A DNA stretch of 64,000 nt from Escherichia phage vB_EcoP_SU7, in the sequence record NC_070980.1. One strand, 5' to 3'. The translations under genes and the position numbers were made by a program. Position 1 is the first letter of the stretch. Each line of letters opens with the position of its first letter. Under the pieces are notes generated by a model. That model saw only the letters and a list, made by a program, of their open reading frames with translations. It ran no database searches and was not told the DNA's origin. Positions 51,801 through 64,000 of the stretch are shown piece after piece.

Positions 51801-52229
51801 TTAAACAACAAATTGGAACGCTTCGTATCCAAACTTGTAAGAGAAGTCATGCTTGAATTTCACTACACGACCACAATCACGGAAAGATTTCAAACGGCTA
51901 CTGAACCCAGCCATCGGCTCAGGGTCGATAGGGCTACGAATCTTCATAGCTACAGAGTGCAGCTTGAAGCGTTTACCAGTGCTACAGGCCATCATCACAT
52001 ACTCCATACGAGTAGTCCAGATGTTGAGCACCATGCTTGTTTTCTCCGCTGACCAACCAGTCTTGCGGGCGATTTCCTTGTGGACATTAAGCTCCAAAGG
52101 AAGAGGGAATTGCTTGTTGAATGAAGCCGGATATAGCTTGACCAGAAGATCAATGTTTTCTTTATACGTGAGGTAAGCCAATTTCTTGCTTACGTTGGGG
52201 AATTTCCCAGCCATTTTTTGAAGCTCCAA
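51801..52229 (-). CDS. ProQ/FinO-domain-like RNA-binding protein
   Basis: …LYPASFNKQFPLPLELNVHKEIARKTGWSAEKTSMVLNIWTTR… resembles the ProQ N-terminal domain. Confidence 0.4.
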   Translation of the reverse strand: MELQKMAGKFPNVSKKLAYLTYKENIDLLVKLYPASFNKQFPLPLELNVHKEIARKTGWSAEKTSMVLNIWTTRMEYVMMACSTGKRFKLHSVAMKIRSPIDPEPMAGFSSRLKSFRDCGRVVKFKHDFSYKFGYEAFQFVV

Positions 52230-54422: not shown

Positions 54423-54498
54423 TTGGTGCACCCTACAGGATTCGAACCTGTAACCAACGACTTAGAAGGTCGCTGCTCTGTCCATTGAGCTAAGGGTG
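54423..54498 (-). tRNA. tRNA-Arg (anticodon UCU)
   Basis: Minus-strand read GCACCCT-TA-GCTC…GAGC-A-GCGAC-CUUCUAA-GUCGU…ACAGG-UUCGAAU-CCUGU-AGGGUGC-A-CCA folds as a canonical cloverleaf with encoded CCA. Confidence 0.85.
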
Positions 54499-54508
54499 CT
54501 GGATTTGT

Positions 54509-58981: not shown

Positions 58982-59893
58982 TTATGCTGCCTGTTGGCGT
59001 GCTGCCATGATTTCGGCAGCTTTGCGCAACACTTCTTCTTCTTCCTGCGCAGCTTTCTCGTTCGCTTTGATAGTTGAAGCATTTGAGATGCGACCACGAA
59101 GGTTAGACAATTTTTCAGTCATTTCGTTGATCGCTTTTTCCATTTCATCAGCGTATGAGTCCAGAGATTCAAGCTCTTTAGTCGAGGCATTAATCAGGTA
59201 GTCATCGCTGATAGATACAGTTGATGCGGTCACTTTCTTAAGGAGTGAATCGAAAGTTTTCTTAACTTTGCCTACTTCTTCACTCAGTGCGATAGTGTTA
59301 TCAGAAGATGCGCCGTTGCGTTCATCTGCCAGTAGTGCCGCTTCAATACGGATTGCAGCCAGACGGTCAACCAGTGCATAAATATCCTGATTAAAGTTTT
59401 CGTTAACCTTCTGGTTGATCTGGTTTGCTACCGGAACATTGTCGTTGCAACCTTTGTAGAATGCTGGGTTATCAACCTGCACGTCTTCACCTTTAGCAAA
59501 GCGTTCAAAGGAGTTCGACCAGCGGGCGCGGTTTTGTTCCATTTTAGATTTAACTTGTTCCGGTTTAGCATCTTCTTTAGCTTTCGCTTCACCTTCCAGA
59601 TTAATCCATTTCTTCTTACCGTTCGCCCCGTCAGTGTTATATTTGATAGGAGTCAGGAAAGAGATTGCAACCGAAATCACATCTAAATCACGATAACGTT
59701 CAATTAACAGGAAATCAACCGCCGCCTGTAATACATCAAGTTTCTTACCGTTAGTGCGGAAGTGCTGCAAATGGCCTAACAGGAAGTTAGAAACATCTTG
59801 TTTGATCGCCGCGTTGTTGCTACGAATGTTGTTAGCCAGTGCATTAAAACCAGATTCGTTAACCAGATTAAAGATTTTAGCCATGATATTCAC
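58982..59893 (-). CDS. hypothetical protein (first gene downstream of the large non-coding region)
   Basis: 303-aa helical ORF. Confidence 0.5.
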   Translation of the reverse strand: MNIMAKIFNLVNESGFNALANNIRSNNAAIKQDVSNFLLGHLQHFRTNGKKLDVLQAAVDFLLIERYRDLDVISVAISFLTPIKYNTDGANGKKKWINLEGEAKAKEDAKPEQVKSKMEQNRARWSNSFERFAKGEDVQVDNPAFYKGCNDNVPVANQINQKVNENFNQDIYALVDRLAAIRIEAALLADERNGASSDNTIALSEEVGKVKKTFDSLLKKVTASTVSISDDYLINASTKELESLDSYADEMEKAINEMTEKLSNLRGRISNASTIKANEKAAQEEEEVLRKAAEIMAARQQAA

Positions 59894-60703
59894 CTTTCAA
59901 TTGTAAGGGCGCTATTGCCCCGCTCTCTATGAGCTTTTTAAGTCACTATTAACTTAACTATAAACGCTCACTACTAAACGCTTATAGGTAAGTGGGGCGG
60001 TCTTATCAGGAGTTAACCTTGCCGCCCCCTTATCCGTGATGTTTCATCTGGTATCTTTAATTAGTCGCTATAAACGAAGCCGACCTGATAGCGATGATCA
60101 ATCATCACAATAAGGCAGTGCGTCCGACACTATTTAATTACTTTATCGTAACCGTCGGCAATATCGTCTACTTTGCTTTCGCTCCCGCCTATCCTTTTGT
60201 ACTAACTCTCAATCGCTAACCATCGCCCACTACGGGAGGTTATTGCGAAAGAGTCATTAGCCGTCTAATACATTGACGTTTTATATCTTTCAGCAGGTTT
60301 ACTACATAAACTGATTATGTACGCCATCAATAGTGGCCTCAAATCATTCACATCGTAAACGTTCACACTAAACCTTATTGTTAAATAGCAATTTGCCACT
60401 TTTTAACCACTCCCCGCCGCTCGCAATTGAGCGTTAATTCTTCGGACTTGTCTACCCTGATTAACTTCTTTCACTGTAGCGCCTTGTTAGCGATGACCGC
60501 CGCTACCCTTAACCGTGGGCGATTAGCTTAAGTCTTTGCGTGCACTCAATGAATCCGTCTATCAGTGGTGACGTTTCCAGTAAGGGATTGTAAGATTGTT
60601 TTCTCTGATAGTTTAGAGAATCTCACACCGTTTTATCTGGTATGCTTTCCGATGGTTATTATCATCAAGCATATTCAACCGATATAGGAGAATGTTTAAA
60701 TTA

Positions 60704-61489
60704 TTAAAGAGCGGTAAATCTATCAGTGTGCTTTCTCACACTATGCAACTGTTAGCCGTTGTTACGCTTTTCTTAAGCGGTGATTTGCTTAAGTGATGTG
60801 CTCATTATGAATCATGCTGTTTTAGCTGTCAACCACTTTTTTAAATCTTTTCTCATCTATTCTTTCGAATGACTAGTTAATCACGCATTGGATTAACAAG
60901 ATTGTAAGCGGTTGCGCTTAACTTTCTGATTCATATTTTTAAAGAGCGGTGTTTCTTACTGCTTAGTGAACATTCTAACAGAACGTTTCACCTTGTCAAC
61001 TCTTTTTATCGTCTTCTTTTTATTCTCTTCCCTTATCTCGCGTGAATCTTTGCGAAAGGGCAAGACGATAAATTGTTAAAGAGCGGGGCACTAAGTGCCG
61101 GATGTTTTATGTCATCACTGACCGTGTGAACATCTTATCATAATGATTCGATGTGTCAACAACTATTTTTCGATTAATGCATCTTGATAAACTAGCGACC
61201 GTTAAGGCCGCTAACCTTACCTTAGTTCATACGTTTAAAGGTTAAATCTTTATCCGTACTTACCAGCGATAACACCGCAATAGCTTTGCCTTTATCGGCA
61301 TCGGCTACCATCTCTTTTGCCTGCTGTAATGTACTACCGACTATTCTCATAATCATGTTAGTAACGTTAATGCTAGTGCAAGTGATTTGCGTGTCTTTGC
61401 TTGAGAAGGTATACACGTTCATTGATAAATCCTCATTATGGCATGGTTGGGAGTTTATCAAGATACACTAATCGAATTATTAAAGAGCA
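60704..61489. repeat. array of four TTAAAGAGC(G/A)(G/A) motifs, each followed by a short hairpin
   Basis: TTAAAGAGCGG at 60704, 60949 and 61076; TTAAAGAGCAA at 61479; each preceded by AT-rich sequence; lies within and just past an ORF-free region. Confidence 0.5.
61222..61461 (-). CDS. small hypothetical protein
   Basis: 79-aa ORF. Confidence 0.35.
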   Translation of the reverse strand: MINSQPCHNEDLSMNVYTFSSKDTQITCTSINVTNMIMRIVGSTLQQAKEMVADADKGKAIAVLSLVSTDKDLTFKRMN

Positions 61490-61782
61490 AGGCTAAACAT
61501 CTAGCCTATCAGGAGGTAACTTACTGCATCACGTCCTGACAAGATTCAATATACACTATCCTAAAACCGTTGCAAGCCTTTTTCTAAAAATAATTTCACT
61601 TTCTTTTGTGTACAGAGGAACGCGCACACGAATAACATCAAGGGAGGAAGAAAACAAGCCTTATAATCGAAAATAAGGCATACAGGAGGTGTTCTAACGA
61701 GCTAAACAAGGGCAAGATGTGCAATCACCTTAGAAATGAAAAAAGCGCCTCAAAAGGGCGCTTAGAAAGTCTTACGGATTGG

Positions 61783-62109
61783 TTACGGATTGGTGCAAGT
61801 GCCGTTGCCTGATGCTATTTCGTTCATCGACTCATCGAACAACGTCATGCTAGATCGCATCATGTGATCTATGGTGACTTGTTTGCCTGTTGTCTGATTG
61901 ACCAGCATTGCAGACTTACTATCAACTATCTTGCTGTCGTAGTCGTTAAGGTCAACCAATATTGCCTTGCTGGACTTCTTGCCAGTGTCGTAGTTTTCCA
62001 TAAGATAGGTGCATTGCAGACCATCTAAACTGGCCTCGTTGAATACGGCAGCATGTGACACGGAAGAAATAGCGAACAAAGCAGAACATACAGCTAATTT
62101 AATTTTCAT
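61783..62109 (-). CDS. secreted/periplasmic protein
   Basis: ATG at 62109; signal peptide MKIKLAVCSALFAISSVSHA. Confidence 0.45.
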   Translation of the reverse strand: MKIKLAVCSALFAISSVSHAAVFNEASLDGLQCTYLMENYDTGKKSSKAILVDLNDYDSKIVDSKSAMLVNQTTGKQVTIDHMMRSSMTLFDESMNEIASGNGTCTNP

Positions 62110-63222: not shown

Positions 63223-63499
63223 TATTACTACTCCTGATAAATGAAAGATTGTTTGTCGTGTGTGGTTACTTAGGCTGATCAACCTTCACTACTCACTATC
63301 ACCGCTAACTACTTTACATCACTGCTTCATTAACGATAATTCAAACTACGATTGCAACTATATATTAAAGGAAAAACTTGTCAACCACTTATTTTCAAAC
63401 TGTTTAGATTTCTAATCACAACTCATTGAATCTAAAAGAAATTTAATTTACTAAACTTTCTTGTTCAGAGATATAGCTTACTACTTAATAACACTTATA

Positions 63500-63610
63500 G
63501 AACGGGTAGCAGACCAACGGGATAGATGCATGGGTAAGACGTGCCGCATAGGTTAGCCAATGGGTAAGAAGCCTAACGGGGAAGGGGAAACGGGTAGGGT
63601 ATAATGTAAG
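63500..63610. repeat. cluster of about six degenerate A(C/T)GGGTA(A)G repeats ending in a TATAAT-containing motif
   Basis: ACGGGTAG, ACGGGATAG, ATGGGTAAG (x2), ACGGGGAAGG, ACGGGTAGGGTATAATGTAAG at 11-28 bp spacing in an ORF-free region. Confidence 0.4.
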
Positions 63611-64000
63611 TTAGTTACAGGTAACAGGTCAGACCATGCGGTAATAAATTACCAGTCAAAAATCTACTCATCAAAAGAAAAAAGAAACGCTGAAAAAGAA
63701 AAGAATAAAAGAAAGAATAAAAATAATAACTAAAGTAAACAACTACCAATTCTCATTGCTACGCAATGGACTAAAACCAGTCTAATGATACATACATCAA
63801 TAATCCACTCATGAAACATTAACATAAGTTATTACATTCAAACGTGGGGAAGTGTTAGCAACAGTATAGTTTACATAGGTTATCATTAATGTTCTTACTA
63901 TTAATACCGGTTAGTTATAGTCACTATCAGTATGCCTGTACAGTGCTAGCCTTTCATCCCTTCTCAACATGAGTAAGAGAAATACGGGTAGGAAATCACT

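Follow-up and report, generated by a model that had tools for sequence, protein, structure and literature searches.

The spacer described here lies in a stretch of 64 000 nucleotides (nt) of DNA from Escherichia phage vB_EcoP_SU7 (NC_070980.1), which is referred to as the window. Between ~18 kb and 64 kb of the window, nearly all genes are carried by the minus strand, and the region must therefore be read on that strand. The spacer is located upstream of the homologue of phiEco32 gp124 (58982..59884, minus strand; 300 residues), which is the first gene of a long early operon and matches phrog_13018, a family with no function assigned there. The spacer contains four predicted promoters, each followed by a copy of a short motif, and an untranslated leader RNA of ~0.83 kb that extends from the last motif copy to the gp124 start codon (59885..60701, minus strand) and was identified as conserved and highly structured from folding, covariation and conservation. 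The leftward operon itself consists of minus-strand genes from ~61 kb to ~18 kb. The nearest relatives are the phiEco32-like phages (87–94% nucleotide identity). Region 59800–61600 matches 96 phage records, all of which are phiEco32-like podophages (Gordonclarkvirinae) of Escherichia coli or Shigella, the nearest match being vB_EcoP-101114UKE3 (UKE3; 93% identity). In the phiEco32 reference genome, genes 124 and 125 are separated by the counterpart of this spacer, 1.9 kb without any annotation. A preliminary description, made from the sequence alone, had reported that 59894–61221 is free of open reading frames (ORFs) of 60 or more residues on either strand. A listing of all ORFs of at least 25 residues agrees with this; the only ORFs of at least 60 residues that touch the interval are the two flanking genes, namely the gp124 homologue (listed with a GTG start at 59893, the real ATG being at 59884) and an ORF at 61222–61461.

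The repeats reported in the preliminary description were relocated and reread on the transcribed strand. The 11-mer TTAAAGAGCGG occurs exactly at 60704, 60939 and 61076 (the second copy had been placed at 60949, wrong by 10 nt), and its variant TTAAAGAGCAA is present, starting at 61480 and not at 61479. On the minus strand the 11-mer reads CCGCTCTTTAA, and the general minus-strand form of the motif is (C/T)GCTCTTTAA(T/C/A)AAT. The gamma-proteobacterial consensus of boxA, the NusB/S10 RNA site of ribosomal RNA (rRNA) operon (rrn) leaders, is GYTCTTTAANA (Baniulyte 2017, PMC5725501). This consensus is matched perfectly by all four copies and by no other site in the window; both the consensus and the 9-mer GCTCTTTAA occur exactly four times when the two strands are searched. 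By its sequence, the repeated motif is an rrn-type boxA, an identity that the first reading missed because the motif had been read on the non-transcribed strand. All four copies are on the minus strand and span 787 nt (60702–61488). Shuffled windows contained 0.62 ± 0.69 boxA matches, and four were reached in none of 100 shuffles. By simple arithmetic, if four sites were placed at random in the 128 kb of the two strands, all would lie on one strand within 787 nt with a probability of ~2 × 10−7. Conservation in relatives, which had been put forward as a check on the motif, was found in 12 of 12 GenBank relatives; each carries four or five consensus boxA copies, all of them on the transcribed strand and all in this spacer.

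For comparison, the E. coli rrn leader was taken from the chromosome via its 16S gene; it reads TGCTCTTTAACAATTTATCAGAC. The second phage copy together with its 3′ extension (61067..61084, minus strand), GCTCTTTAACAATTTATC, is identical to the rrn leader over 18 consecutive bases. A 126-nt piece around this unit gave no BLAST match in E. coli genomes, since an identity of 18 nt is too short for BLAST. The 18-mer was also observed in 36 IMG/VR contigs, often at contig ends; these contigs are probably host rRNA operons adjoining prophages. Another string, GATTGTAAG, had been reported to recur at 60581 and 60899. Two copies do exist (at 60586 and 60900), but as a motif the pair was rejected as chance, the copy at 60900 not being conserved in most relatives. 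CTGATA was tried as a further motif and was not enriched.

Each boxA follows a minus-strand sigma70 promoter, at a distance of 18–85 nt from the predicted transcription start; all of these promoters were identified by consensus scan. Unit 1, the most upstream, begins with promoter U1 (TTGCAA-16-TATATT, 61548..61575), the weakest of the four at 9/12 consensus positions, the −35 and −10 blocks of which are conserved across 13 phages. A boxB-like hairpin found by scan (61490..61507) lies directly 5′ of boxA-1 (61478..61488; GCTCTTTAATA in the context TGCTCTTTAATAAT), which is at ~+53 from the predicted start; relatives have GGCAA-GAAA-TTGCC at the place of this hairpin. Together, this hairpin and the U-rich boxA also resemble a weak intrinsic terminator. 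Unit 2 comprises the TG-extended promoter U2 (TTGACA-16-TAAGAT, 61132..61159; 10/12), a boxB-like hairpin seen in the sequence and by scan (GGCAC-UUA-GUGCC, 61087..61099) 2 nt 5′ of boxA-2, and boxA-2 itself at ~+41. In unit 3 the TG-extended promoter U3 (TTGACA-16-TAGAAT, 60972..60999; 11/12) is followed at ~+18 by boxA-3 (GCTCTTTAAAA, 60937..60947). Unit 4 consists of promoter U4 (TTGACA-17-CATAAT, 60804..60832; 11/12), a boxB-like hairpin supported by folding and alignment (AGUGUG-AGAAAG-CACACU, 60725..60742) and, 12 nt further 3′ and at ~+85, boxA-4 (GCTCTTTAATA, 60702..60712). Both hexamers of U4 are invariant in 19 of 19 aligned sequences. Among the same number of sequences, the unit-4 hairpin shows compensatory changes at three stem pairs (AU/GC, GC/AU and UA/CG/AU) with a conserved loop, and the block GAYAGATTTACCGCTCTTTAA at boxA-4 is conserved in these 19 distinct sequences, and likewise in 21 of 21 when two more are included, with a single variable position. 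The hairpins that had been reported beside the repeats were thus found at the 60704, 61076 and 61480 copies; none adjoins the copy at 60939. They end 1–12 nt before boxA in units 1, 2 and 4, which is the rrn order (boxB, then boxA), whereas the order in lambda nut is reversed. The units do not correspond to lambda-type nut sites, as the hairpins lie 5′ and not 3′ of boxA; a homologue of the N protein was not searched for.

The three best sigma70 matches of the region are U3 (60999–60972), U4 (60832–60804) and U2 (61159–61132), all on the minus strand, and the promoter cluster proposed as one candidate in the preliminary description is borne out. These promoters match the early promoters predicted for SU10 and phiEco32. 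According to the SU10 paper there are, 'like phage phiEco32', three sigma70 promoters in this spacer (PMC4281155); the sequences in its Table S2 are those of the units seen here, U4 being equal to the SU10 promoter listed at 73511. The promoter cluster itself is therefore already known. In an alignment of 13 genomes the promoter cassettes differ between lineages, whereas the boxA blocks are invariant; unit 3 has three unrelated versions of its promoter, behind which boxA stays unchanged, and in some relatives the place of a small ORF of the window phage is taken by extra promoter–boxA units. The promoter of the short right-end operon (63357..63384, minus strand), a near-consensus sigma70 promoter by scan (11/12), served as a control. 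The 130-nt leader downstream of this promoter (63384–63357) does not contain boxA. Strong promoters of this genome are thus not accompanied by boxA as a rule; the element distinguishes those located upstream of the long untranslated leader and the long operon.

The leader was found at a coverage of at least 80% in 96 of 96 related records (75–95% identity) and nowhere else in the phage collection. The 857-nt stretch that holds it (59870–60726, minus strand) has a folding energy of −265 kcal mol−1, compared with −209.8 ± 5.6 kcal mol−1 for dinucleotide shuffles (z = −9.8). Covariation was analysed in an alignment of 19 distinct sequences (13 from GenBank, four metagenomic and two from IMG/VR), with pairwise identities of 76–96%. 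The consensus fold from RNAalifold has 237 pairs, and 99.2% of the pair-cells are standard pairs. Pair-keeping changes on both sides are present at 63 of the 237 pairs, compared with 26.5 ± 2.7 in column shuffles (none of 500 as high); when the partners were slid by 1–3 columns, 2–10 compensatory pairs remained. Because RNAalifold itself uses covariation, the count was repeated with a structure predicted from a single sequence. In the fold from the window sequence alone 95.9% of the cells are paired, with 69 compensatory pairs compared with 32.4 ± 2.9 in shuffles (again none of 500 as high) and 5–10 after sliding. The sequences of the window phage and of NC-B, the most divergent of the alignment, were folded separately and have 187 of 272 pairs in common. 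The unit-4 alignment also gave RNAalifold pairs with promoter DNA that precedes the start site; these are artefacts.

Many of the leader pairs are invariant G–U pairs or alternate between G–U and G–C or A–U. As G–U pairs are possible on this strand only, the constraint acts on the minus-strand transcript. The leader has no codon periodicity (100, 113 and 98 variable columns by phase) and its insertions and deletions are almost all of 1 nt, on which grounds small ORFs in the leader were rejected. In the UKE3 record (MZ234017), ~10 'hypothetical proteins' of 30–50 residues are annotated on both strands across the promoters and the leader; in view of the non-coding signature, such tiny genes are probably over-calls. 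We hold with high confidence that the RNA structure is real and selected. A set of small non-coding RNA units had been suggested for the region beforehand. Structured RNA is indeed present, but as one large leader of ~830 nt downstream of the motifs and not as several small units.

The 5′ part of the leader forms a multi-branched domain at ~60402–60700. A hairpin at 60383–60401 separates it from a second multi-branched domain (60107–60381), and the 3′ part consists of a row of hairpins from 60106 down to 59906. The second domain is closed by a 10-bp helix formed by two blocks, 60373–60396 (24 nt) and 60090–60116 (27 nt; both minus strand), which pair with each other and are invariant in 19 of 19 sequences. 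The invariance of both helix strands suggests an extra constraint, for example a protein or tertiary contact. Block 60373–60396 also contains a boxA-like string with one mismatch (TGCTATTTAACAA). In phage LAMP the inner part of the second domain (~1950–2070 of the stretch compared) is replaced by a longer unrelated sequence with the flanking helices kept, which suggests a variable peripheral element.

Both folding methods predict a long-range closing helix. Its 3′ strand, GGUGAAUAUCA (59888..59898, minus strand), coincides with the Shine–Dalgarno (SD) and start region of the first early gene and pairs with UGAUAGAUUUACC (60709–60725), located just 5′ of boxA-4. One divergent case, phage TH42, has GGUAAAUUAUCA as its 3′ strand; a change of G to A turns a U–G pair into U–A, and an extra U can pair with the formerly bulged A, so that the pairing is kept and lengthened. 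We tentatively liken the predicted helix to the leader–trailer helix of rRNA operons; it would sequester the ribosome-binding site of gp124.

Searches for similar RNAs were performed in several collections. With Rfam 15, which includes GOLLD, ROOL, riboswitches, introns and rRNA, the best hits for 59700–61900 at thresholds up to E = 10 were at chance level (E ≥ 0.2) and far below the gathering scores. The whole leader had no match in E. coli genomes. Pattern scans of IMG/VR and metagenomes for distant homologues recovered the same phage group only, plus chance matches that were discarded; a scan guided by the gp124 protein returned the same five contigs and no further homologues of the leader locus, and tblastn and blastn searches of the phage collection returned the same 96 records. 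In Salmonella phage 7-11 (Grimontviridae), a distant relative, over 1.1 kb of non-coding DNA separates the early promoters from gene 151, the first of the early genes, and this leader folds better than shuffles (z = −3.1). A search of 2.8 kb of phage 7-11 with the leader profile (nhmmer) gave nothing significant (best E = 0.39).

Upstream of the promoter array, the short right-end operon spans ~63.2 to ~61.8 kb and ends at an intrinsic terminator identified by scan (61743..61763, minus strand; a 7-bp stem followed by a T-run). The terminator is kept in relatives with compensatory stem changes (GCGCC/GGCGC versus GCCTC/GAGGC), and the SU10 paper also puts a terminator behind the gene cluster that precedes the spacer (PMC4281155). 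Another hairpin resembling a terminator, GCCTTATTTTCGATTATAAGGC with a T-rich tail (61658–61679, minus strand), lies between this terminator and U1; the two could form a double stop before the promoter array. Between units 1 and 2 the ORF listing shows a small lineage-specific ORF of 66 residues with the SD sequence GAGGA (61222..61422 within ORF 61222–61461, minus strand), for which family searches gave no match. It is found only in the window phage, UKE3 and NC-B, the other relatives having a further promoter–boxA unit in its place. A second stretch without convincing ORFs, 63400–64000, is located upstream of the right-end promoter; its minus strand contains a long T-rich tract as well as repeats of CTTACCCA and of CCCGTT, and the terminal repeat or the packaging region may be close by. 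Further along the window, a gene for tRNA-Arg (anticodon TCT; 54424–54499, minus strand) was found by both ARAGORN and Rfam (73 bits; Rfam span 54427–54499). This was the only hit in the window above its Rfam gathering score, and the transfer RNA scan of the window found nothing else.

The arrangement resembles that of the E. coli rrn leader in its tandem strong sigma70 promoters, in a hairpin followed by a consensus boxA within the first 20–90 nt of the transcript, with 18 identical nucleotides in one copy, and in the long structured untranslated RNA downstream, where a predicted long-range helix brings the flank of boxA together with the 3′ end of the folded region. It differs in that the phages have four or five promoter–boxA units, whereas rrn has one boxA for two promoters; moreover, the phage region has no recognised boxC, its RNA has no similarity to rRNA, its transcript continues into protein-coding genes and it is encoded by a virulent phage. 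With the nut sites of lambdoid phages it would share, as proposed here, the use of host Nus factors through boxA in early transcripts. In contrast to nut, the hairpin precedes boxA and the full rrn consensus is present (GCUCUUUAA, compared with the weaker CGCUCUUA of lambda), and lambdoid phages are temperate. The boxA elements of suhB and of clustered regularly interspaced short palindromic repeat (CRISPR) arrays are likewise consensus copies outside rRNA that precede long untranslated RNA, where boxA counters Rho (Stringer 2020, PMC7665894; Baniulyte 2017, PMC5725501); these are single chromosomal copies, whereas the phage has several, one per promoter, before a structured RNA rather than a repeat array.

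Two phage-borne systems were also compared. In T7, as here, all early genes are transcribed in a single direction from at least three tandem strong host promoters (A1, A2 and A3) close to an end of the genome; to our knowledge T7 has no rrn-type boxA behind each promoter, and its leader is short, with an RNase III site and no covarying RNA of 830 nt. The GOLLD and ROOL RNAs are similar in being phage-borne and several hundred nucleotides long, with many covariation-supported helices and no known function. The present leader differs from them in lacking an Rfam match to either even at E = 10, in being confined to one group of coliphages and in its position as the 5′ leader of an operon with antitermination signals of its own. 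The termini of the phiEco32-like phages are T7-like (PMC9965538).

We consider it likely that the spacer is the main control region of early transcription and forms an rRNA-style, Nus-modified transcription unit that produces a large structured leader RNA. From the features of the locus we infer start sites, Nus binding, antitermination and a function of the RNA, as follows. Past the terminator of the short operon, the four tandem host sigma70 promoters would fire leftward, and every nascent transcript would soon bear a consensus rrn-type boxA, preceded in three of the four units by a boxB-like hairpin. BoxA, aided by these hairpins, would recruit the host NusB–S10 complex, which together with NusA, NusG and SuhB would turn RNA polymerase into a Rho-resistant, fast antitermination and RNA-chaperone complex of the rRNA type. 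A phage N protein would not be needed. The modified polymerase would cross the 0.83 kb of untranslated RNA and go on into the long leftward operon. The leader, as a selected and elaborately folded RNA, would probably fold co-transcriptionally, as pre-rRNA does, and the closing helix would join the boxA-4 flank to the ribosome-binding site of the first gene in the manner of a leader–trailer helix. As in the transcription of rRNA, the modified polymerase would also tether the 5′ end of the transcript, which aids long-range folding.

Several published observations bear on this scheme. NusB binds the rrn boxA at 130 nM and the lambda boxA at 2200 nM, a difference of ~17-fold (PMC2800207), and the tighter binding of the rrn form fits an N-independent action. 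BoxA shields long untranslated RNAs (rRNA and CRISPR arrays) from Rho (PMC7665894). In SU10, as its authors remarked, no terminator was detectable at the end of the early genes (PMC4281155), and the authors of the phage 7-11 study inferred an undefined antitermination strategy in that relative.

A number of points weigh against the proposed unit or parts of it. The transcription starts are predicted from the promoter consensus only, U1 is a weak match (9/12) and a hairpin is missing from unit 3; in rrn, boxB is dispensable. A GU-rich boxC block was not seen 3′ of any boxA, as judged without a formal search, and beyond boxA the identity of the second copy to rrn extends over 7 nt only. Both strands of the closing helix are invariant in the 19 sequences and hence show no true covariation. 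The long leader of phage 7-11 has no boxA. The leader RNA is G-rich rather than C-rich (24% G and 17.7% C) and heavily folded, and by composition it has no rut-like Rho signature. The argument that boxA is needed against Rho is weakened by a G-rich, folded leader that is no obvious Rho substrate, and a role in chaperoning or elongation speed is favoured. As regards novelty, the phiEco32/Kuravirus literature that was covered does not mention boxA, antitermination signals or non-coding RNA at this locus; Savalia (2008) and Pavlova (2012) are outside that scope, and part of the above may be noted there.

Other explanations of the repeats and of the gene-free region were weighed against the Nus-modified unit. 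In an iteron replication origin, one of the candidates of the preliminary description, the 11-mers would be initiator binding sites and the nearby AT-rich DNA an unwinding element. Repeated motifs, AT-rich flanks and a region without genes suit an origin, and we know of no established replication origin in these phages. Yet the copies have a single orientation and irregular spacing (235, 137 and 404 nt), each lies at +18 to +85 of a promoter, and their sequence equals that of an RNA element; the cumulative GC skew does not turn here, and the conservation downstream obeys the rules of RNA base pairing, including G–U pairs. An iteron origin is therefore extremely improbable. A transcription-primed origin, in which the structured transcript would act as a primer in the manner of ColE1 RNA II or the promoter-dependent primary origin of T7 and boxA would ensure its completion, is compatible with all of the data shown here: strong promoters drive a long structured untranslated RNA, and the phages resemble T7 in lifestyle and possess direct terminal repeats (PMC9965538). 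It is nevertheless improbable, since no G-rich or C-rich anchor for an R-loop stands out (the G excess of the RNA is that of the neighbouring coding sense strand), a skew switch is lacking here as well, Rfam gave no similarity to known primer RNAs and the transcript runs straight into a translated operon.

The remaining explanations concern gene expression. The motif is always near a promoter, and gp79 is known to turn off the early promoters of phiEco32 (PMC12276001), as might be expected if the motif acted on DNA or on initiation, either as an operator for a phage or host regulator (e.g. in the gp79 shut-off) or as a promoter-proximal element, its likeness to boxA being coincidental. A regulator-bound motif of this kind had also been among the early candidates. 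However, gp79 acts on RNA polymerase and not on DNA (PMC12276001), the fifth strong sigma70 promoter has no motif and the motif lies in the transcribed leader at distances from the start that vary from +18 to +85, whereas a fixed position is expected of an operator; an 11/11 consensus match in all copies of all phages together with the 18-nt rrn identity is hardly due to chance. We regard this explanation as quite unlikely. The terminator-like score of the U1 hairpin and boxA in the scan recalls small RNAs or attenuators, for which each promoter, hairpin and U-rich motif would give a short terminated transcript, with the hairpin and UGCUCUUUAA as an intrinsic terminator. Only one of the four units passes the minus-strand terminator scan, however; there is no hairpin in unit 3, the U-tracts are neither long nor continuous, the conserved structure runs 830 nt further and the promoter nearest to the first gene is U4, all of which makes short terminated products very improbable.

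A more far-reaching form of the Nus-modified unit would be a phage 'pseudo-rRNA operon', in which tandem promoters, boxB–boxA Nus loading and the closing helix mass-produce within the first minutes of infection an RNA of ~0.83 kb with a function of its own, the leader not being a passive 5′ untranslated region. We advance this tentatively, as a possibility that we do not favour. Examples of roles that such an RNA would have are the sequestering or scaffolding of a host or phage factor, host take-over and anti-defence. One candidate factor is encoded in the window. The preliminary description had pointed to a ProQ/FinO-like protein at 51801–52229; the ORF (minus strand, 142 residues) is real and its match to the Pfam family ProQ/FinO (PF04352) is borderline (E = 1.1 × 10−5; 25.8 bits against a cut-off of 27). 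Judged from this match, the product would be a FinO-domain RNA chaperone encoded in the same leftward operon and a candidate partner of the leader RNA.

In the literature covered, the boxA identity and its arrangement in a virulent phage, with one copy per promoter, appear to be undescribed, as does the large covarying leader RNA. What is new in the proposed unit is that Nus/boxA antitermination would be co-opted in a new setting and attached to a new structured RNA family. In practical terms, several GenBank records populate the region with spurious tiny 'hypothetical protein' genes, and in phiEco32 the 1.9-kb gap has been unannotated since 2008. Both claims, that of the boxA units and that of the leader, lend themselves to direct tests by phage engineering and by the standard genetics of nus, rho and suhB in E. 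coli. The covarying leader of 0.83 kb is a new large structured RNA in a well studied, genetically tractable E. coli phage. Apart from its use by lambdoid phages, antitermination through boxA and Nus has been regarded as in essence a mechanism of rRNA synthesis, to which suhB and CRISPR arrays were added recently. If the proposed unit is correct, a consensus rrn boxA behind each main early promoter of a virulent phage would represent an N-independent hijack of the rRNA transcription machine, and would explain how these phages transcribe their very long early/middle operon.

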